DNA of 64,000 bases, taken from positions 1-64,000 of IMG/VR virus record IMGVR_UViG_3300012956_000016; one strand, 5' to 3'. This document shows positions 3,610 to 56,801 of the stretch, piece after piece. Numbering within the stretch: the stretch's first letter is position 1; each line of letters opens with the position of its first letter. The translations under genes were made by a program, and so were the position numbers. This stretch comes from a virus. Lineage: Duplodnaviria > Caudoviricetes. Under the pieces are notes generated by a model, which saw only the letters and a list, made by a program, of their open reading frames with translations, did not search any database and was not told where the DNA came from.

Positions 3610-5127
3610 ATGAAACCATTAAATACACCAAACGAAGGCTGTGATCCAGTATCATCTAACTGTGTTATCTGGCAAGGACCAGATATCCCGTGTTTAAAGC
3701 TATGTAAAGGTGATAGTGTTTCTTCAGTAGTACATAAAATGGCCACAGAACTATGTGACATCATGACTACTTTAGATATTTCTAGTTATGATCTTTCATG
3801 TTTTAACTTAAAGTTATGTCCTCCGGAAACATTCACTGAGTTGATCCAGTTCATAATGGAAAGAATCTGTAAGCTTGAAGGCTGTACAGGTTGTAAACCA
3901 GACTGTGATAATAACTCAGTTCCTCCTGTTACACCTACTTCTGCAGCTGGTTGTCCAGACTGTATAGTTGATGTAGCATCTTGCTTCTATTTCACAAACC
4001 AACTTGGTGATCAGATCACAACTATGCAGTTGTCTGATTATGTACATGCTATTGGTAACAAAATTTGTGGTATTATTGATGGTACAGTTACAATCAATGC
4101 TACCCTTGCTAACCAAGGTGCACGTATTAAAGCTTTAGAAGAAGAACCAGCTCCAGTAATTTTACTTCCTAGTATTGTTCCTTCTTGTGTTTTACCACCA
4201 GAAGCTGCTGAAATAGATGTTGTATTGCAAGCTTTAGAAACTCAGTTCTGTCAATTAAGAGGATCTACAGGATATCCTGATCAAATCTTCTTTGCTATTG
4301 ATAAACAACCTGCAGGATTAACTCAAGCTAATGCATTAAGCTTTGTTGGAACCATGGGTTCTATTCCAGGTTGGAACAGTGTTGTAAATAACTTAGCCGA
4401 TTCATTCACTAATATGTGGTTGACTATCGACGATATTAGAAAAGCTGTGCAAACTATTAAACTTAACTGCTGCCCATCAGGATGTGATGGAGTACTTATC
4501 AATCTTAGTGGATATTCAGTTGATGCTAATAGTATCAAGTTATATATAACAGGTACCATTCCTTCTGGATTCTTACCTTGCTCTGGTAATACTTTATTTA
4601 CTATTACTGATGCATTAGGAAACTCATTCCAGTATCCAATCGATCTTCCGGTATACATGAATAACCCAGGTGGTGTTACTATTAATTTAGTTTCAACTCC
4701 AGTTAATGGATCAAGTAACTTAACAGTGACTGCCAGTCCATGTTTAACTAACAACACAACTAATGCTACATGTCAATCAGCTCTTAACTTATATATTGTC
4801 AACCAAAACAACTGTCCTGTTGTGACATTAACTCAAGGTTTAACAAGTATTAATTACGGTATAGCATTAACAATAGCTAATACAACATACACTGTAGAGT
4901 TATGGAATAACACAAACAGCACATTATTACAAACAGCTGTACATAGTGTTGTATCTCCTGCTGCTATATCTGGTACGTTTACCGGATTAACAGGTGGTAC
5001 ATCTTATAATGTAAGAGTAAAATTAATGATAGGTACTATAGAATCTGTATGTCCTTTCGCTGCAATAAGTACTCTTCCTGCATTGTGTCCTGCTCCAACT
5101 AGTGTAACATCAAACTTAGAATACTAA
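3610..5127 (+). CDS. Cys-rich tail fibre-like protein with coiled coil and C-terminal FN3-like domain
   Basis: N-terminal C-x5-CVIWQGPDI motif; coiled coil (NQGARIKALEE); FN3-like YTVELW...FTGLTGGTSYNVRVK. Confidence 0.55.
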   Translation: MKPLNTPNEGCDPVSSNCVIWQGPDIPCLKLCKGDSVSSVVHKMATELCDIMTTLDISSYDLSCFNLKLCPPETFTELIQFIMERICKLEGCTGCKPDCDNNSVPPVTPTSAAGCPDCIVDVASCFYFTNQLGDQITTMQLSDYVHAIGNKICGIIDGTVTINATLANQGARIKALEEEPAPVILLPSIVPSCVLPPEAAEIDVVLQALETQFCQLRGSTGYPDQIFFAIDKQPAGLTQANALSFVGTMGSIPGWNSVVNNLADSFTNMWLTIDDIRKAVQTIKLNCCPSGCDGVLINLSGYSVDANSIKLYITGTIPSGFLPCSGNTLFTITDALGNSFQYPIDLPVYMNNPGGVTINLVSTPVNGSSNLTVTASPCLTNNTTNATCQSALNLYIVNQNNCPVVTLTQGLTSINYGIALTIANTTYTVELWNNTNSTLLQTAVHSVVSPAAISGTFTGLTGGTSYNVRVKLMIGTIESVCPFAAISTLPALCPAPTSVTSNLEY

Positions 5128-42303: not shown

Positions 42304-42557
42304 TAGTTAATCTTTTTAAGTCCTTCAATCACAATATGTATTTCCTTTTTCAAGTCTGTAGGTAACGAGTCAAACTCTTCTTTAGGAAGAAGAGATAAAG
42401 TAAGTTCCTTATTGACATAAAGAACTGTAGTACATCCTGAACAAACTGTGATATCTCCCTCAATAGGGATAGCACCAGAACCATCTATAGCTAATGCCAT
42501 ATCAAGAATCTTCTTACAATTTGGACAAGAACAAGGTACTGTTTTTACACTGTTCAT
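42303..42557 (-). CDS. Small Zn-finger protein
   Basis: CPNC...CSGC pairs; translationally coupled on both sides. Confidence 0.6.
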   Translation of the reverse strand: MNSVKTVPCSCPNCKKILDMALAIDGSGAIPIEGDITVCSGCTTVLYVNKELTLSLLPKEEFDSLPTDLKKEIHIVIEGLKKIN

Positions 42558-42940
42558 TAGCTTTGTATAATGGGATGAATATTTGGTTTCGAATAATTAG
42601 GTCCCTTTAAAATCTTACCATCCTCACGAAAGATAGGATTTCCATCTTCACCTAACTTACTCATGTTACTTCTTTGTATTTCGGAAAACACCTCTTCAAT
42701 CTTGTGTTGTAGTCCATGTTTCAGGATCGTACCGCATAAAATATAAAGCTGATCGCCTAGCGCATCGGCAACTTCAACTAAATCCCCCTTCTCACAGGCT
42801 TCTAAATATTCGTCATTCTCTTCTTTCATAAGAGCATATCGAAGTGAGCTTTCTTCCGGGTTTAATAACTGAGGTGTTGTTCCGTCTACAATGTTGAACT
42901 TCTTATGAAATTCAGCAACATCACTTAACTGTTTAATCAT
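42557..42940 (-). CDS. MazG-like all-alpha NTP pyrophosphohydrolase (dUTPase-like, PRA-PH/DR2231 type)
   Basis: VAEFHKKF...LMKEENDEYLEA...EVADALGDQLYI...EIQRSNMSKL...DGKILKGPNY. Confidence 0.85.
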   Translation of the reverse strand: MIKQLSDVAEFHKKFNIVDGTTPQLLNPEESSLRYALMKEENDEYLEACEKGDLVEVADALGDQLYILCGTILKHGLQHKIEEVFSEIQRSNMSKLGEDGNPIFREDGKILKGPNYSKPNIHPIIQS

Positions 42941-42964: not shown

Positions 42965-43003
42965 AAAAATAAGAAGACTTAGTATATTTACCAAGTCTTC
43001 TTA
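42965..43003 (-). terminator. Rho-independent terminator
   Basis: 11-bp inverted repeat TAAGAAGACTT/AAGTCTTCTTA followed by a T-run on the minus strand. Confidence 0.65.
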
Positions 43004-43010
43004 CTATTTT

Positions 43011-43661
43011 TTATTTACCAGCTCCGTTGATATTAACGGCACCAATAGAGGCAGCTTGTGCACGTTGTACACCTGCAGCACGTTCAGCATCTAATGCGTT
43101 TTTCCACATGTCAACTTGTTGAACTAAGAACTCATTTTTACTTTGTAAAGTTTCCAACTCAGCTTTTGCTTTGGCTTCTTTAGTTTCGTTTTGTGAGTTC
43201 AATAAAGCTGTAGCATTATCATGCTCTTTTTTCATCGCTCCAGTTGCTGCAGCTACTGCAGAACTTACTTCAGATTTGATATCGCGATTTACTTTATCAG
43301 CATCAGCTTCTAATTTTGAGTAATCAGCTTTATCAACAGCCACTAATCCTTGACGGTCTAAGATTCCATCAACAACTTTTCTTTCGTTAGCTTTTAACTC
43401 AACTTCTAACTCAACTGTTTTTTGACGACGTTTCTCAGAGAACTCAGTATCAAGTTCTTTGATTTTGTCTTCACGTTGAGCGATGATAGCTTGAGCTTCT
43501 TCAGCTTTGTTTGCTAAATCTTCAACTTTACCCATTGCAGCTCCTAAAGCTGTAATTGATTTTTTGATTTCTGCTGCTGCTGCTCCGATGATTACTTCAG
43601 ATGCTGCTGTACCTTTTTTAGGTGCTGACTTTGGAGACTCCGCTCCTTTTGTTTCTGCCAT
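43011..43661 (-). CDS. Ala/Glu/Lys-rich coiled-coil protein
   Basis: Nearly all-helical heptad composition; last gene of the vWA/AAA unit. Confidence 0.7.
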   Translation of the reverse strand: MAETKGAESPKSAPKKGTAASEVIIGAAAAEIKKSITALGAAMGKVEDLANKAEEAQAIIAQREDKIKELDTEFSEKRRQKTVELEVELKANERKVVDGILDRQGLVAVDKADYSKLEADADKVNRDIKSEVSSAVAAATGAMKKEHDNATALLNSQNETKEAKAKAELETLQSKNEFLVQQVDMWKNALDAERAAGVQRAQAASIGAVNINGAGK

Positions 43662-43701
43662 TTTGTTTTGGTTTTTAGGTTATTTATTTATGAATTGTTT
43701 G

Positions 43702-44250
43702 TTACTTAACAGTATACTTGATACCTTTAACAATGAACCAGTTGATTCCACGAGGATCAACTAATCTTGTACGAGTATCGTAGTCTTTACTACCATCTTT
43801 AGCCTCTTCCATATCGATGAAACTTACACGACCTAAGTTATTAAGTTCACCATTATGACGACCAACCATAGTACGAGCTTCCCCAACTAAGGCACTTTTA
43901 ACTGCTTTCTTAACTGCATTTTCAACTGCTTTCGGAGTTGAACCTTCATATGCAGTCATGATTTCTTTAACCACATCAGCTTCTTTAACTTGTTTGTTAA
44001 AGTCTACTGTGATAGCCATACCTGAACTAGCTAAGAACTTAGCTGATGCTTCAGTTTTATTTAAGGTTACTTCTTTCAAGTGTTGACTTGCAGAGTGTAA
44101 CTGACCTTCATAATAGTTTTTATCTACTACGATGTATGCACCAGCATCGTTTTTTAACTGGATCTTACCGTCTTGGAATTTTTCCACGGTGTAAAACTGA
44201 GTTTCAGAAAGGACCTCGCCTTTTTTGATTTTTTTGAATGATGTTGCCAT
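43702..44250 (-). CDS. Hypothetical protein (start re-called to 44250)
   Basis: MATSFKK start follows the upstream TAA (TAACATG); the track's longer start lies inside the upstream gene. Confidence 0.65.
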   Translation of the reverse strand: MATSFKKIKKGEVLSETQFYTVEKFQDGKIQLKNDAGAYIVVDKNYYEGQLHSASQHLKEVTLNKTEASAKFLASSGMAITVDFNKQVKEADVVKEIMTAYEGSTPKAVENAVKKAVKSALVGEARTMVGRHNGELNNLGRVSFIDMEEAKDGSKDYDTRTRLVDPRGINWFIVKGIKYTVK

Positions 44251-44251
44251 G

Positions 44252-45697
44252 TTAAAAATAGGTTTTTTGTTCTCCATCTTTGTTAAAAGATGAAAGTGAG
44301 TTATTATAGATAGCGATGTATTTACCTTTGTTAGCAATACATAAACGTTTAAGCTCTTCGTTTGCTTGTCTTAATGAGATAGCATTTGTTTTATATTCAA
44401 AACCATCTGTACCAACACTGTCATTACCATCATTGATGGCAAGGATTTCAGGTTGATCTTTAGACAAGTCAATGTCAAGATTACAAAGTTTATGACGAAC
44501 ATTGATTTCGTAGTTGATAAAGTTAACCATATCTCCTAACTCCGTTCCTCCACCACTTGGTCGTGTAGAAAAAGAAGCCCAGAACTCAAGAGCTGTCTTA
44601 CGATCATATATATGCTTGAATTTCATGTAACTAGTGTCACTTAAAAAGTAACTGAAAAAGATTTCAGCTTCCTCTTTCATAGCATATTTAAGACGATCAA
44701 TAAGTAAAGCTACTACCCATTCTTGTTTGTCTTGTTCGTTCATACTTCCAGAGTAATCAAGTAACATGATGATCTTTTGTTTGTGTTCTGTACGATCTAC
44801 AGGAACTCTTACAATTAGATCTTTTGTTAAAAGCTTGGTAGGAAAGTTTGGCATAAGTCGTTGGTACAACTCGACATTGTTCATTTGAGAGTAATCTCTC
44901 ATCATACGGTGAGCTGTGATATGGGAGTTAGCTACTACTTTTTCTTCAACTTCTTTCTGGATTTTAAATTCAGAACCAAAGTTTTTGATCATAGCGATCT
45001 TATTAAGGATCTCAAACTTACGACTTTTACCGAACATGTTTTCATCAAGTAACTCATTGTATATAGGGTCACCATACACTTCAGAGTTAACATTGATTTC
45101 TTCAGATCTTTCTAAATCTTTAGGAGTCATTTTTCCTTTAGGTCCTCCTGCTTTACGTTCCAATTCTTTGAAAACAAATAATGCTTTCTCAAGTGGAGAC
45201 ATACCAGGTACAAATCTATCCCAAAGATCATTATACATCTGCTGTTTAGCTGCGATCATCTCTATCTCCTTCTCATTTAATGCACTAAGATCATCATACT
45301 TAGGATCAAAATAGTCTTTTTCTTCTAGCATTTTATAGTAAAAGAAGCGTGACATTTCTTTAATCAAATCTCTGTTATCCTTAGTATCTGCATTCCAATC
45401 AAGTTTGGATGAGATATCAGTACTTTTAGGAGTAAAATAACTCGGGTGGTTTTTAATAACCAAGTCCTTATCATCATCTTCTCCTACTGTACTAAATCCT
45501 CCAAAATTACCCCAGCTAAAGTTACCTCCGTAGTAGTCTTCATAGTAGTCATCATAACCACCATATCCACCACCGTATCCGTAACCATAGTTTCCACCTC
45601 CATAACGACCATTACCACCACCATTCTTTCCACCTTTTCCTGTGTAGGTTGTAGTTCTGTGACTATCAAATCCTACATTCTTAGAATGATAGCCCAT
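44252..45697 (-). CDS. vWA-domain protein (ViaA/CoxE-like) with Gly/Tyr-rich N-terminal low-complexity region (start re-called to 45697)
   Basis: IIMLLDYSGSM MIDAS; SGGGTE; AINDG; adjacent to a MoxR-type ATPase. Confidence 0.75.
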   Translation of the reverse strand: MGYHSKNVGFDSHRTTTYTGKGGKNGGGNGRYGGGNYGYGYGGGYGGYDDYYEDYYGGNFSWGNFGGFSTVGEDDDKDLVIKNHPSYFTPKSTDISSKLDWNADTKDNRDLIKEMSRFFYYKMLEEKDYFDPKYDDLSALNEKEIEMIAAKQQMYNDLWDRFVPGMSPLEKALFVFKELERKAGGPKGKMTPKDLERSEEINVNSEVYGDPIYNELLDENMFGKSRKFEILNKIAMIKNFGSEFKIQKEVEEKVVANSHITAHRMMRDYSQMNNVELYQRLMPNFPTKLLTKDLIVRVPVDRTEHKQKIIMLLDYSGSMNEQDKQEWVVALLIDRLKYAMKEEAEIFFSYFLSDTSYMKFKHIYDRKTALEFWASFSTRPSGGGTELGDMVNFINYEINVRHKLCNLDIDLSKDQPEILAINDGNDSVGTDGFEYKTNAISLRQANEELKRLCIANKGKYIAIYNNSLSSFNKDGEQKTYF

Positions 45698-46886
45698 CAG
45701 GTTGACTAATTTGTGGTTCTTCAACAGGACCATCATTAATAGGACTTCCACCGAAACTTTCTGCTGCATCGCTGATATTAACTAAAAGATCCAAGGTTTT
45801 CTTGTTCTTCTCGTAGATAAGAGTGAATTTTTTGATAGCATCTGTTGTAGTAGAAATAAGAGAATCGTCAGCTTTAATAGCTTTCAAAGCTGTGATCTCA
45901 ATATATAAGCTTTTGTTTAACTTAGCAGCTTCTTGTAAGCCAGTAGTTAAGTTCATATCAGCAGTATCAAACTTGCGAATGATGTCTAACATATGAGCAG
46001 TTTTCTTCTTGATCTCCAAGATACTGTTAAACTTAGTGATAGAAGTTTTTAACAAATCAGGTTTACCACTGAAGTCAGCAATAAAGTTTAATGCTTCAGG
46101 ACCTGACTCTGCAATGATAGAAGCTGCAGTTAATGCGATACGAGGACTGATAGTTGTACCACCAGTATGGTATGCTTCTAATAAGTAAGTTAACATAGGA
46201 TCTGCTCCACCAAACTTAGCCATGAAAAGCTTCTCGTAGTTATGACGAGTATGTTCTTTCCAAACAACTTTTAACTCTAAAGGAAAACGTTCCATTAAAG
46301 CTTTCAATGAATTGTTCTTAGAGAACTCTTCACGAGTTTTGTTAGTACAACAAATAATGTTTTTTGTTTTGATTGGGTATACTTGTCCTCCATTTCTGAA
46401 AACACCTGAGCTCAAGATATCTTTTAGTTGTTCCAAGATATAATCTGGAGCATCAAATAACTCTTCAAAGATAACGTATTCAAAGTTCATGAATGAATTA
46501 TCAACTAAGTATTCTATTTTACCAGTAGCATTGAAAGTTAAGATATCTAAACCACCGAATAAACGATCAGTTGTCATACCTGAACCCATAGTAATTACAT
46601 AAGGACTGATACCTTTAACACCAAGGTAATCTAAAGCATACTCTGATTTACCATATCCACCTGGTCCATAAAGAATAACATTTTTCTCTGTGTTGAAAGA
46701 AACGTCAAGTACTTTCTTTACATCATCCATGAATACATAAGCATCCAAAGGATTAGGCTTTTCTAAATCACCTAACTCATCAGTAGATTTTACTGATGCA
46801 TTTACATTTTGTTCTCCGGCAGTTTCGCCAGTTGTGTTCTCGTTGTTTACAGTAGACCCTGCTACTGTTGTGTTCTCTTCGTTCAT
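45681..46886 (-). CDS. MoxR/RavA-like AAA+ ATPase
   Basis: Walker A GPGGYGKS, Walker B VIFEE, sensor-1 CCTN, LMERFPL arginine finger. Confidence 0.8.
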   Translation of the reverse strand: MNEENTTVAGSTVNNENTTGETAGEQNVNASVKSTDELGDLEKPNPLDAYVFMDDVKKVLDVSFNTEKNVILYGPGGYGKSEYALDYLGVKGISPYVITMGSGMTTDRLFGGLDILTFNATGKIEYLVDNSFMNFEYVIFEELFDAPDYILEQLKDILSSGVFRNGGQVYPIKTKNIICCTNKTREEFSKNNSLKALMERFPLELKVVWKEHTRHNYEKLFMAKFGGADPMLTYLLEAYHTGGTTISPRIALTAASIIAESGPEALNFIADFSGKPDLLKTSITKFNSILEIKKKTAHMLDIIRKFDTADMNLTTGLQEAAKLNKSLYIEITALKAIKADDSLISTTTDAIKKFTLIYEKNKKTLDLLVNISDAAESFGGSPINDGPVEEPQISQPDGLSF

Positions 46887-46906
46887 ATTAATTTAAGGGT
46901 ATTGTG

Positions 46907-47851
46907 TTATAATAAAGTCTCCATACTCTTGTAAGCTCCTATTAATTCTTCGTCTCCTGAAGCAAATGCAGCAGCTGATTTAGCAGCAAAAGCAGATTTA
47001 CTTGAACGAACATAGGTACTAGCCTCAACAATATTAGATACTTTACTAGCATTTGTAAAATCAATACATACACCACCTGTCATTTCAGATAGTTGTTTGT
47101 ACCAAGGTGTGCTATGGATTCTTAAAGTATCGTATTGTATGCCCATCTTAGCAGCTGTTTTAGCTTCTTCTTTCCAATCGATTTGAGCATTTTGTACTTT
47201 ACCAGCAAGACTATAACCTACTTTATGTGGATTATCATCTCCGATAAATAATACTGATTTGATACCATCTCTCCAGTCAGTTTCTTCGTTAATCTTTTTG
47301 ATAACAAGTTCATAGAACTCATCTCCATCTCCACCAGAAGTGTTTTTAGCATGTTGTATGAATTTTACCAAATCGTTCTGGTTATCAGTTAACTCGATAG
47401 TTTGGTAAGCTTTACCAAATACTTTAGATGATTCCATATCACAGTAATCACCGAAAGCTACTATCTTAACTTTTAAGTTAGGAACGTTCTTAAATAAGTT
47501 AACCACTACTTCTTGTACATGCTTTCTTACAGCTGCGATGTATGATCCCATACTTCCTGTAGTATCAAATGCGATAACATAGTCAGTTGTTTTAGTTGTA
47601 ATATCTTCAACTTTTGTAGAGCTAGTTTTAGTAGCAGTTGTTGCTACAACCTTTGTAGGTACAACTTTCTTAGCAGCCTTTTTAGGTGTCACTTTTTTTG
47701 CAGTTGCTTTTTTAGTAGAAGGAGTTTCTTCTGAGAAAGCTTTCAAGAATCCAGCTTCAGTTTTGTAGCCATATTTTAGCAACATTTTTGCTTTACGTTC
47801 TTTGTTAGCCCTTTTATAGGACTGAAGAACAGTTGGTGTGGTCTTTGCCAT
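46907..47851 (-). CDS. vWA-domain protein with Lys/Ala/Thr-rich N-terminal tail (start re-called to 47851)
   Basis: YVIAFDTTGSMG MIDAS, FGDYCD, GGDGDEFYE, LFIGDD. Confidence 0.8.
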   Translation of the reverse strand: MAKTTPTVLQSYKRANKERKAKMLLKYGYKTEAGFLKAFSEETPSTKKATAKKVTPKKAAKKVVPTKVVATTATKTSSTKVEDITTKTTDYVIAFDTTGSMGSYIAAVRKHVQEVVVNLFKNVPNLKVKIVAFGDYCDMESSKVFGKAYQTIELTDNQNDLVKFIQHAKNTSGGDGDEFYELVIKKINEETDWRDGIKSVLFIGDDNPHKVGYSLAGKVQNAQIDWKEEAKTAAKMGIQYDTLRIHSTPWYKQLSEMTGGVCIDFTNASKVSNIVEASTYVRSSKSAFAAKSAAAFASGDEELIGAYKSMETLL

Positions 47852-47879
47852 TTTAAATAAGTTTGAGATATTCATAGAT

Positions 47880-47940
47880 AAACTAAAGGCCAGGATTACT
47901 CCCAGCCTATAGTGTATAGACAAGTGAGTTTCACTTATCT
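47880..47940 (-). terminator. Tandem hairpins; the second (47887-47908, GUAA loop) is followed by a T-rich tract
   Basis: Minus strand AGATAAGTGA-AAC-TCACTTGTCT, then AGGCTGGGA-GTAA-TCCTGGCCT-TTAGTTT. Confidence 0.55.
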
Positions 47941-47976
47941 ACTTAATGTACAAAATTTTGAGTAACTTTTTGAATA

Positions 47977-54362: not shown

Positions 54363-55553
54363 TTATTTAACAGACATTTTCATAACCTCTGCATTGGTCA
54401 TCATCTTTTGGAACTTTTGAGTGTTCGCGTTGTAGATCTTTTTAACAAGTAAGTACATGATATCATTCGAGAAGATCTCAGGATCAGTACAGAATCTGAT
54501 TAAACGTTTAGACATATCATCAGTTACCGGATGATTTTCTGTGTAGTTGATAGTGTAGTTGATTAAACGAGTAGCTAATGTGCTCGCAATATCAGCTCTG
54601 AACTTATCACCACGTCCAATAGAGTTTCTCAACTCACCAACAATGTAAGCTTCATTCTCATGAAGTAACATATCTCTTGGGCTTGTCAACTTATCTAACT
54701 TGTTATTGATAAACAAGGTAAACATAGTTGCAAAGTTAGGACCTACACTTCCTTCTCCGATCATTTGGATTAAACCCAACTGAGCATCAAAGTCAGGGAT
54801 AGAACTGATAGAGTTAAAGAAAGTCATTACACTTCTCGGATTCACATCGCGTGTAATAACTTCTGGATGTAATAACAAAAAGTTAATACATCTACTATCT
54901 ACTCCTACTTTCTCAGCCCAACGAGCCCATACTTCTACATTAAACTTAAATCTAACACTTGCAAAACGAGTTTTTTGTGCTGGATCTAATGCAGTTACAG
55001 AATAGTTACCATCATCAGGATTAGTTGTAAGAATGATATGCCAATCAGGAGGTAATTTCCAAGACATATACTGTTGAGTTTCTATCAAGGTCATGGTTGC
55101 TTGCATGAACCTTGCATCAGCTCTGGTGTAATCATCTAATAATAAGATACCACCTTTAGTTCTACCTTGAATGAACTCTGGAGCAGCATGTGACATTCGT
55201 CTTTCACCTGTAGGGTTATAACCATTTGTGATATGCTGAGGAATACTATTCTCAGTAACCCACATATAGTTTGTTCCGTTTGTAACTTCATACTCTTTTA
55301 AAGGAAATCCTACTAAGTCACCAAGTTCTTCGATTTGTGCAAGATTAATCCTGCAAATATCTAAACCTAATTCTTTAGCAAGTTGCTCTACGGCAGAAGT
55401 TTTACCTATCCCGGCTTCTCCTTCTATATTTACACATACAGGTACTGCACCTTTAGCTTGTAATGCTCTGTTATTGTTTACAATATGTATTAAAAACTCT
55501 TTTAATTCTTCAGCATGTAATTCTACTTGTACTTTTGCTTCTTTAGTCGCCAT
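54363..55553 (-). CDS. MoxR-like AAA+ ATPase
   Basis: Walker A GEAGIGKT, DLVGFP, Walker B LLLDD, TTN, AQKTRF, NPRS. Confidence 0.85.
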   Translation of the reverse strand: MATKEAKVQVELHAEELKEFLIHIVNNNRALQAKGAVPVCVNIEGEAGIGKTSAVEQLAKELGLDICRINLAQIEELGDLVGFPLKEYEVTNGTNYMWVTENSIPQHITNGYNPTGERRMSHAAPEFIQGRTKGGILLLDDYTRADARFMQATMTLIETQQYMSWKLPPDWHIILTTNPDDGNYSVTALDPAQKTRFASVRFKFNVEVWARWAEKVGVDSRCINFLLLHPEVITRDVNPRSVMTFFNSISSIPDFDAQLGLIQMIGEGSVGPNFATMFTLFINNKLDKLTSPRDMLLHENEAYIVGELRNSIGRGDKFRADIASTLATRLINYTINYTENHPVTDDMSKRLIRFCTDPEIFSNDIMYLLVKKIYNANTQKFQKMMTNAEVMKMSVK

Positions 55554-55562
55554 GTTTTAATG

Positions 55563-56801
55563 TTAATTTAGTTTTATCTGGAAGCCCTCCAGTTCGGGAT
55601 TTTCTCTTGATTGTGATGACATAACCCATAATACAGGTCCTCGGCATTTATCAGGTGCCGGTGCTTCCCCATCAGTAAGATAGATGAGACAGTTATACTT
55701 ATTATGATTTTCGTCATAGTAATCGGTAACAGGATGGAAGCTTGTACCTCCACGACCGTGGATCTCAAAGTCAAGCTTTGGATCAAACTTACCGATATAA
55801 CTAATAGAACTATCACACTGTATAATAGTTACTTCAGTACCTGTTCTATGAATATGGGTGATTTCACTTAAGAACTCAACTAATTCATTAGTGCTTACAG
55901 ATCCTGATGTATCTACTGCAACAAGTATTCTTCTTTTAGGTTTTATCTTAAGACCTGGATTCTCTTCAAATCTTACGTTAAGTTTCTTACGAGACTTTTT
56001 AGTAAAGACATTGTTAGAACCTCCAGCAAATCTTCTTAAGAAAGCTCTCCAGTTAAACTTAGGTTCTTCAAGCTCTTCAATTCGCTTAAGAATTTCAGCT
56101 AGTTCTCCTGGTACAGTTCCTCTACTTTTTACTACTTGATCTGCTACAGCTTTGATAACATGTTCTGCTTGTGCTTTAACTAACTTCTGAGTTGCCTCAT
56201 CCATATCTTTAAAGTCTTTCCAAGTAGAGTGATCAGGAGCTTGGGTAGGATCAACAGTTCCTCCTGGACCTTGTAAGTCAACCATTACTGGTTTTCCTCC
56301 TTGTCCAGGTTGACCCATACCTTGCATAGCTTGAAGCATTGCATTTAAGTTAGGACAGTTACCTTTCTGTTTACCTTGCTGAAGCTTCTCGTAGTAATAA
56401 AGAGTACCTTTCTTTGGTTCGAGTTTTAACTCGGGGTAGGAAGAAGGTAATTGGGGTCCTGGTGGTAAATACTTAGGATCAATGTACTGATTTATCTCTA
56501 TATCCATGGCAATGTTTGCAATATCATGGTCGCTTAGGTGATTAAAGTCAGTAACATGAAAGAAAGCAATATGTAATAACTCATGCTTCAGTAACCCTCT
56601 ATGTTGTAATGGTCCAAGACTATTCCAAAACTCCTCGTTAATATCCAACTGATAGTTAATACCATTAGAAGATACTCCGGCAGTAGGAACTCTTGAACTC
56701 CATACTTTGTTCAACATAATGAGGAACAAACCATAGAAAGGTTCTGCAAGCATAAGGTCTTTTGAAGCTTTCGCTAAAGCCTCTGATTTATTTGGTAGCA
56801 T
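55563..56801 (-). CDS. DUF2201-type metallopeptidase-vWA protein
   Basis: LKHELLH HExxH with DIEINQ; C-terminal AVDTSGS MIDAS, GRGGT, YLTDG. Confidence 0.85.
   Translation of the reverse strand: MLPNKSEALAKASKDLMLAEPFYGLFLIMLNKVWSSRVPTAGVSSNGINYQLDINEEFWNSLGPLQHRGLLKHELLHIAFFHVTDFNHLSDHDIANIAMDIEINQYIDPKYLPPGPQLPSSYPELKLEPKKGTLYYYEKLQQGKQKGNCPNLNAMLQAMQGMGQPGQGGKPVMVDLQGPGGTVDPTQAPDHSTWKDFKDMDEATQKLVKAQAEHVIKAVADQVVKSRGTVPGELAEILKRIEELEEPKFNWRAFLRRFAGGSNNVFTKKSRKKLNVRFEENPGLKIKPKRRILVAVDTSGSVSTNELVEFLSEITHIHRTGTEVTIIQCDSSISYIGKFDPKLDFEIHGRGGTSFHPVTDYYDENHNKYNCLIYLTDGEAPAPDKCRGPVLWVMSSQSRENPELEGFQIKLN

Follow-up and report, generated by a model that had tools for sequence, protein, structure and literature searches.

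Does a compact run of genes in a viral genome (Caudoviricetes) form one machine, or does it bring together parts with separate histories? This question is raised by a five-gene locus (43011-47940) in the first 64 kb of the 83.9-kb IMG/VR virus record IMGVR_UViG_3300012956_000016 (estimated completeness 70%), this whole stretch of 64,000 nucleotides being hereafter called the window. In transcription order, the locus encodes a von Willebrand factor A protein (vWA1), a MoxR-class AAA+ ATPase, a second vWA protein (vWA2), a protein of 182 amino acids (aa) and a 216-aa probable coiled coil. An initial annotation had described it as a self-contained chaperone or anti-defence machine with two alternative adaptors and dedicated clients or scaffold. 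The present analysis leads to another reading, which we consider likely: two independent vWA-based modules would be nested one inside the other in this region and accompanied by one optional gene, the whole being probably gathered in one transcription unit. The five-gene unit as such appears to be a lineage-specific juxtaposition and not a conserved system. Among about 110 loci examined, all five genes were found together at a single other locus (L017). vWA2 directly follows the ATPase gene in 66 of 69 IMG/VR loci, and 65 of these 66 complete pairs have neither vWA1 nor the 182-aa gene nearby. Conversely, vWA1 and the 182-aa gene are found where the ATPase pair is missing: in Bacteroides phage crAss001, in about 21 IMG/VR loci and, of the eight nearest relatives sampled, in five.

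The locus and its phage

The window has a GC content of about 35% and a bipartite orientation: as far as about 42 kb, long structural and virion-RNA-polymerase genes are carried by the plus strand, and a replication-type block follows on the minus strand. The window belongs to an uncultured crAss-like phage: vWA1 is 58.7% identical to gp52 of crAss001, and the locus lies in the same position, where the replication module ends and converges with the giant virion RNA polymerase block. All five open reading frames (ORFs) of the initial annotation are present in their places on the minus strand. Their tight or overlapping arrangement was also found, with an intergenic spacing of +20, -17, +1 and +40 nt from the first to the last gene.

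The ATPase-vWA2 cassette

The product of the second gene (45681-46886, minus strand, 401 aa) had been called a MoxR/RavA-like ATPase, and this identification held. It matches the Pfam models bpMoxR (40.2 bits for a cut-off of 27, E = 2.5e-10) and AAA_5 (38.3 bits for a cut-off of 22), and RavA is its nearest solved structure (3e-6). It carries a Walker A (GPGGYGKS), a Walker B (VIFEE), a sensor 1 (CCTN), an arginine finger (MERF) and a sensor 2 (SPR), whose conserved residues are invariant in an alignment of 28 homologues. This protein can be regarded as a predicted MoxR-class AAA+ ATPase with intact catalytic motifs. Its homologues form at least 805 clusters, and PF20030 and PF07728 are found on nearly all of the 120 homologues listed. 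Among PHROG families, the unannotated ATPase family phrog_19600 (1e-7) gives a better match than phrog_249.

vWA2 (44252-45697, minus strand) was recognised from its family alignment, an AlphaFold2 (AF2) model and Foldseek. It has 481 aa when counted from Met25, its likely start at 45697, in a frame that is open back to 45769. It consists of a disordered Gly/Tyr/Ser-rich N-terminus of about 70 aa (residues 1-72 have a predicted local distance difference test score, pLDDT, below 50 in the AF2 model), a helical middle domain that has no PDB match by Foldseek and a C-terminal domain with a vWA fold (AF2 model, Foldseek). Its metal ion-dependent adhesion site (MIDAS) reads DYSGSM...GGGT...NDGND, with D-x-S-G-S, GG-x-T and D-G-x-D invariant in 24 homologues. 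The N-terminus contains 34-60% of G+Y+S in all 24 family members and is therefore a family trait, and a WxW motif is present in 21 of them. The HExxH motif is absent from all 24, and no match to DUF2201 was found. The DYSGS-type vWA domain of the initial annotation thus gains a vWA fold and a full MIDAS, and the Gly/Tyr-rich stretch, which had been placed at the tail, lies at the N-terminus. The family, which comprises at least 321 clusters, is too divergent for the Pfam cut-offs; its weak best match, seen in 20 of the 24 members, is VWA_CoxE.

The 69 loci mentioned above were retrieved by scanning IMG/VR with a profile made from the ATPase alignment. Of the three loci without a detected vWA2, two (L102 and L108) extend too short a distance beyond the ATPase gene, the third being L064. 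The position of vWA2 and the invariance of its MIDAS agree with the earlier proposal of a MoxR ATPase working with a vWA adaptor, vWA2 being the predicted cognate partner. Only one of the 69 loci has a vWA1 or 182-aa gene within 5 kb of the pair: L054, which is on the same contig as L020 and is the closest IMG/VR relative of the window. Five whole records were also searched for the 182-aa gene, the crAss marker g1902 and the DUF2201 protein encoded elsewhere in the window (see below). One of them (G001, 94 kb, 79% complete) is crAss-like, with g1902 and the DUF2201 protein but without the 182-aa gene, and carries the pair at a different locus. The other four lack both g1902 and the DUF2201 protein. 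Three of them, complete non-crAss genomes, carry the pair without any 182-aa gene (G002, 114 kb, 99% complete; G003, 65 kb, 100%; G005, 135 kb, 100%), and the fourth (G004, 136 kb, 100%) has this gene 4.4 kb downstream of the pair. No homologue of the ATPase or of vWA2 was found by tblastn in 50,697 GenBank phage records. The single match in cellular genomes (185,579 species) is on a 21-kb contig of a metagenome-assembled genome of the candidate phyla radiation, and the family was not met in the family libraries or literature searched. Overall, the two genes appear to form a mobile cassette carried almost exclusively by uncultured virulent phages.

A protein of about 160 aa (N-terminus ...IFTFDHGQKKL...) without any Pfam match recurs in 32 of the 69 ATPase loci (e.g., L060:4218-4619), just upstream of the ATPase gene in the loci inspected (L060, L007 and L008), and may be a lineage-specific third partner. 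Apart from this unrelated family, no third gene is conserved across the 69 loci. In L118 (4683-9351 of this locus, from IMGVR_UViG_3300034022_000267), about 950 bp carrying a 204-aa GIY-YIG-like ORF interrupt the Walker A of the ATPase homologue. In the vWA2 homologue of the same locus, the interruption comes directly behind the invariant INDGQ and consists of about 1 kb carrying a 221-aa LAGLIDADG-like ORF. Judging from the motifs of these ORFs, both inserts look like endonuclease-bearing introns, located in the two most conserved motifs. Similar gaps of about 1 kb were also seen in vWA2 of L086, L091 and L117.

The vWA1/182-aa pair

For vWA1 (46907-47851, minus strand, 314 aa), the most probable start codon is the ATG at 47851, downstream of the hairpins described below. 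It comprises a conserved N-terminal motif, a Lys/Thr/Ala-rich linker and a vWA domain with the MIDAS motif DTTGS, whose match to VWA_4 (4e-6, 26.9 bits) is just below the 27-bit cut-off. The vWA assignment based on DTTGS is thus retained, whereas the Lys-rich part, previously seen as a tail, is a linker ahead of the vWA domain. A HeH/SAP-like reading of the N-terminal motif is putative, being drawn from its sequence pattern only, and found no Pfam match. A paralogous origin of vWA1 and vWA2 as adaptors was rejected (hhalign probability 1%, E = 0.05). The vWA1 alignment revealed two non-orthologous vWA forms (1a and 1b) behind one common N-terminal motif.

The 182-aa protein (43702-44250, minus strand) aligns over its full length with crAss001 gp51 (24.5% identity, E = 7e-6), and intermediates between the two (30-46% identity) are encoded by L012-L014. 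In crAss001, gp51 directly follows gp52; in the window, the vWA1 and 182-aa genes are 2.66 kb apart, the ATPase and vWA2 genes being located between them, and the gene directly upstream of the 182-aa gene is vWA2. vWA1 and the 182-aa protein are predicted orthologues of gp52 and gp51, respectively.

A profile of the 182-aa protein retrieved 33 loci from IMG/VR. A vWA1-type gene is present upstream of the 182-aa gene in 21 of them and directly adjacent in 20; in L020, the only one of the 33 with the ATPase pair, ATPase-vWA2 lies between the two and the adjacent gene is vWA2. All kinds included, an adjacent upstream vWA gene was found in 22 of the 33 loci. A vWA gene is also directly upstream of the 182-aa gene in L012-L016, L018 and L128-L131. 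The vWA proteins found beside this family belong to four non-orthologous kinds: type 1a, type 1b, vWA2 and Ro60-vWA. The last of these was observed in L052 (4341-6501), where the gene of a phage Ro60 orthologue (TROVE, 8e-45; vWA_Ro60, 1.6e-50) is directly followed by that of a 182-aa homologue (30% identity). A profile search of 1.84 billion representative proteins assigned 1,128 clusters (at 50% identity) to the 182-aa family. It includes fusions: P0443 joins a full-length vWA1 (35% identity, 3e-55) to a 182-aa protein (33%, 2e-24), and the three members of cluster P0467 join VWA_4 (36.8 bits) to two copies of the 182-aa domain. The VWA_4 fusions include eukaryote- or giant-virus-like contigs. 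Furthermore, two tandem 182-aa domains were observed behind Lys-rich N-termini in P0445, P0450, P0415, P0433, P0466 and L126. Tandem copies of this kind are present on contigs of eukaryote-like character. Since these tandem proteins are encoded by short transcript-sized contigs or beside a Ras/EF-hand (Miro-like) gene, the domain may also occur in eukaryotes or giant viruses.

The AF2 model of the 182-aa protein (pLDDT 90.3) displays a Tudor/SH3-like barrel (residues 1-57) and a WYL/Sm-like barrel (residues 63-180). E16, D146 and D165 are among the acidic positions of this protein that do not vary. Residues 63-177 match CapW (Z 6.7), BrxR (6.6) and PafBC (6.3) in VIA-align, where matches are informative only from Z 8, and the Atlas lead to WYL_2 scores 0.80. 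No Pfam WYL match was found in 24 members of the family, no related solved structure was retrieved by profile or sequence, and Foldseek gave nothing at E <= 1e-3. In relatives, the vWA1 and 182-aa genes are located beside an AAA_24 ATPase gene and near helicase- or primase-like genes (the latter recognised by sequence reading only). A full-text search for literature on crAss vWA or MoxR genes, gp52 and gp51 included, found none. Overall, vWA1 and the 182-aa protein appear to be the older pair, widespread across crAss-like phages.

History of the locus

Gene order was compared across the eight nearest relatives sampled, taken by decreasing identity of their 182-aa protein to that of the window. 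The first, L017 (74%), has the order vWA1b, ATPase, vWA2, 182-aa protein and coiled coil; the second, L020/L054 (73%), has the same order with a GIY-YIG gene in place of the coiled coil. L128 (70%), L129 (69%), L018 (65%) and L130 (63%) have only a vWA gene followed by the 182-aa gene, to which L131 (62%) adds the coiled coil. Finally, L019 (54%) has ATPase, vWA2, 182-aa protein and coiled coil but no vWA1. Thus, five of the eight are devoid of the ATPase-vWA2 pair, one is devoid of vWA1, and the two closest (L017 and L054) carry the other, non-orthologous form of vWA1. Neighbourhood conservation, the check suggested along with the initial annotation, therefore gives a largely negative answer for the five-gene set, which recurs only in L017. 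vWA1 and vWA2 can hardly be alternative adaptors of one motor, as had been proposed, since vWA1 is swapped or absent in relatives and ATPase-vWA2 travels without it.

In the ATPase tree, the sequences of the window, L017 and L054 group together (100/97) and have L019 as their sister (83/80), the rest of the tree being made of stand-alone pairs. The cassette is accessory within one sub-lineage whose gene order from pol to g1902 is otherwise shared. Based on these comparisons, the simplest history would be a single insertion of the cassette between the two partner genes of the older pair, followed by losses or exchanges.

Transcription signals and accessory genes

The tandem hairpins reported upstream of the locus are real: in the leader before vWA1 (47882-47942, minus strand), hairpin 1 (about 47942-47916) and hairpin 2 (about 47913-47882, core 47908-47887) have a minimum free energy of -35 kcal/mol (z = -5.3), and none of 200 shuffled sequences folds as well. 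They recur before the same gene slot in L017, with a nearly identical sequence for hairpin 1 and a different sequence with conserved pairing for hairpin 2. Hairpin 2 also scored as terminator-like. The terminator reported after the coiled-coil gene (42968-43005, minus strand) was likewise found again, as a 17-bp stem followed by a T-run (-20.6 kcal/mol, z = -5.5). The five genes are probably co-transcribed as one message in the phage of the window. By contrast, TACATTAA, which had been noted as a motif, was rejected as an operator or promoter element: with 6 copies in the window for 7.1 expected, it stands at chance frequency, and it is absent from the L017 leader. A scan for sigma-70 promoters found no excess of sites (26 compared to 27.2 in shuffled sequence).

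The last gene of the locus (43011-43661, minus strand) encodes an Ala/Lys/Glu-rich helical protein of 216 aa that matches phrog_9325 (1.2e-18), has no proline in residues 21-205 and shows its strongest heptad signal around residues 20-70. The annotated ORF is present, and its coiled-coil label, which derives from composition, is probable. Homologues are encoded by L017 (53% identity), L131 (49%) and L019 (43%). L131 has no ATPase pair, and in L054, which has one, a GIY-YIG ORF (4354-5076) fills the slot; the coiled-coil gene is an optional accessory that varies independently of the ATPase pair. The idea of dedicated clients or scaffold is not supported: the coiled coil is optional, and the 182-aa gene is missing from complete genomes carrying the pair. 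A pattern scan found no close relatives of the coiled coil in IMG/VR, and only weak matches (about 30% identity) were found among GenBank phages, in four Vibrio phage records. In one of these, Vibrio phage BUCT194 (L053; Schitoviridae, NC_070848.1, 4160-12600), the homologue is located two genes from a DUF2828/DUF7788 protein and also adjoins TerD/TerB genes.

A GIY-YIG endonuclease gene was also observed in or near the locus in L017 (1408-1950), and the presence of such genes in close relatives fits the mosaic make-up of the region. After the terminator, 42557-42940 (minus strand) encodes a PRA-PH/MazG-like pyrophosphohydrolase (1e-14), whose gene is found at the same point downstream of the locus in L017, L019, L020 and L128; in L130, it is displaced by two small genes.

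Comparison with known MoxR-vWA systems

In MoxR-vWA systems, an ATPase ring remodels a client through a vWA adaptor that carries a MIDAS (PMC7159879; PMC7824862). Like RavA-ViaA, CbbQ-CbbO, CoxD-CoxE and NorQ-NorD, the cassette has a MoxR-class ATPase gene beside a vWA gene with a complete MIDAS. Unlike RavA, its ATPase has no LARA domain and reaches 25.5 bits against the RavA equivalog NF010054 (cut-off 681), in an alignment that covers only the AAA core (residues 69-221). The disordered Gly/Tyr-rich N-terminus of vWA2 and its helical domain without PDB match also set it apart from known MoxR/vWA pairs. Like p618/p892 of the Acidianus two-tailed virus (ATV) and the group 2.2 pairs of jumbo phages (PMC7824862), the cassette is a virus-encoded combination of MoxR and vWA proteins.

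However, vWA2 is devoid of the HExxH of the jumbo-phage peptidase-vWA proteins and of any DUF2201 match, unlike the N4 gp24/gp25-type MoxR + DUF2201 pair. Both these types correspond to another pair of the window, which is located about 8 kb away (54363-56801, minus strand) and encodes an AAA_5 ATPase (phrog_1297, 7e-33) and a protein with a DUF2201_N zincin and a DUF2201 vWA domain (phrog_1314, 2e-60; DUF2201, 9e-18; DUF2201_N, 3e-14; HELLH at residue 73). Together with the five-gene locus, this pair brings the MoxR ATPases of the phage to two and its vWA proteins to three. The DUF2201 protein of the crAss-like record G001 is 56% identical to that of the window.

The MoxR-vWA-beta-propeller ternary conflict systems (PF20030; PMC7159879) share with the cassette the best ATPase model, bpMoxR. 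Unlike them, the locus has no beta-propeller or effector domain (Pfam, five proteins and flanks) and belongs to a phage and not to multicellular bacteria. The CobS/CobT pairs of marine phages resemble it by a MoxR-like ATPase beside a C-terminal vWA domain and by a weak match to phrog_249 ("porphyrin biosynthesis", 1.8e-5), but no NCBIfam CobS/CobT and no Pfam CobT match was found at E <= 0.1, and this candidate was set aside. Membership in the RavA-ViaA, DUF2201-type and ternary beta-propeller systems was likewise rejected on the evidence of profiles, HExxH and third component. As regards the other two genes, the order and position are those of crAss001 gp52 (labelled vWA-like) and gp51 (labelled hypothetical), which are adjacent there and separated here by the cassette. 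By sequence comparison, the cassette is a MoxR-vWA pair of a known kind, its new part being a virus-confined family with a Gly/Tyr-rich adaptor.

Proposed organisation and alternative explanations

In the organisation that we infer, including its physical interactions, remodelling activity and timing, the outer module 1 consists of vWA1, with its N-terminal motif and basic linker, and of the two-barrel protein of about 180 aa. To judge from their adjacency and fusions, the two most likely interact. The WYL/Tudor-like folds, the basic linker and the genomic setting suggest that the target of module 1 is probably DNA or a nucleoprotein complex of the replication/recombination block. For the inner module 2, RavA-ViaA, CbbQ-CbbO and CoxD-CoxE provide the model: vWA2 would be held by the ATPase ring, and its MIDAS would grip an acidic residue of a client that ATP hydrolysis would remodel. 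A single event would have brought the cassette into this crAss sub-lineage, at the precise junction of the two module 1 genes.

Several points weigh against this nested organisation. In its flanking genes, L018 is nearer to the window than L019 and yet has no cassette; a single insertion therefore needs an added loss or a lateral exchange. Since L019 keeps ATPase, vWA2, 182-aa protein and coiled coil without vWA1, vWA2 may have replaced vWA1 in this lineage, in which case the parts would be less independent. The inserted pair and the 182-aa protein may thus be functionally linked at this locus. The vWA/182-aa pairing is not obligatory, since 11 of the 33 loci have the 182-aa gene without an upstream vWA gene. 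The fusion P0443 has a single member, from a contig of 2.9 kb, and could have arisen artefactually through a lost stop codon. The best structural matches of the 182-aa protein (Z 6.3-7.5) all stay below Z 8, in the range of common arrangements. Finally, the protein interactions proposed in both modules are deduced from gene-level evidence.

The cassette could instead be a chaperone of virion assembly, its position in the early/replication module being incidental. The precedents are ATV p618/p892 and the pairs proposed for jumbo phages; published work ties viral MoxR-vWA pairs to tail or virion assembly (PMC7824862, citing Scheele 2011; PMC7159879), and a widespread and conserved pair is what would be expected of a morphogenetic helper. 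However, all the loci inspected have the pair surrounded by small early-type genes or by genes of replication or nucleotide metabolism, and the structural module is on the other strand. Moreover, an accessory status in one sub-lineage is unexpected for an assembly factor, and this phage possesses in addition a resident pair, MoxR + peptidase-vWA, of the kind to which assembly has been ascribed. We consider this explanation unlikely.

Equally improbable in our opinion is a counter-defence or host-takeover module whose client would be a host defence or stress complex. The patchy and mobile spread of the cassette across unrelated phages, its confinement to virulent phage contigs, the mosaic locus with its allele swaps and homing endonucleases, and the origin of the bpMoxR model in conflict systems (PMC7159879) would all agree with such a role. 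However, PADLOC gave no meaningful defence or anti-defence match for any of the five proteins, which also removes support from the anti-defence machine of the initial annotation. No beta-propeller or effector component is present, the 43-65% identity across lineages is unlike that of fast-evolving anti-defence genes, and the case is built from gene-level evidence.

One integrated machine, with a MoxR motor using vWA1 and vWA2 as alternative adaptors and the 182-aa protein and coiled coil as client or scaffold, would agree with the tight spacing, the common hairpin and terminator boundaries, the same five genes in the same order in L017, the exact place of the cassette between partners, its retention beside the 182-aa and coiled-coil genes in L019 and the single clade of the ATPases of this locus (which implies that the arrangement was kept for some time), but it is very unlikely in view of the single co-occurrence in about 110 loci, the autonomy of ATPase-vWA2 in unrelated complete phage genomes, the cassette-free vWA1/182-aa pairs of most relatives, the non-orthologous vWA1 swap in L017 and L054 and a coiled coil that is present without the ATPase in L131 and absent with it in L054.

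Significance for crAss-like phages

The nested organisation can be taken one step further, although we regard this extension as doubtful: the protein of about 180 aa could be a dedicated and undescribed partner of vWA/MIDAS proteins, and a viral MoxR motor with a prion-like Gly/Tyr adaptor could have been captured into this pair. The dedicated-partner reading is drawn from the 1,128 clusters, from the four vWA types found adjacent (including that of the phage Ro60) and from the VWA_4 fusions.

Few viruses of the gut and of the environment are as abundant as the crAss-like phages. To our knowledge, most genes of their replication module have no assigned function. This work splits an apparent five-gene system into testable units. 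One is a large virus-confined MoxR-vWA family, with hundreds of clusters and none in the 50,697 GenBank phage records. The other is the gp52/gp51 pair, which is approachable in the cultivable crAss001. If the proposed capture is true, the locus would represent a motor-driven form of a nucleoprotein module that normally has no motor, within the replication block of crAss-like phages.

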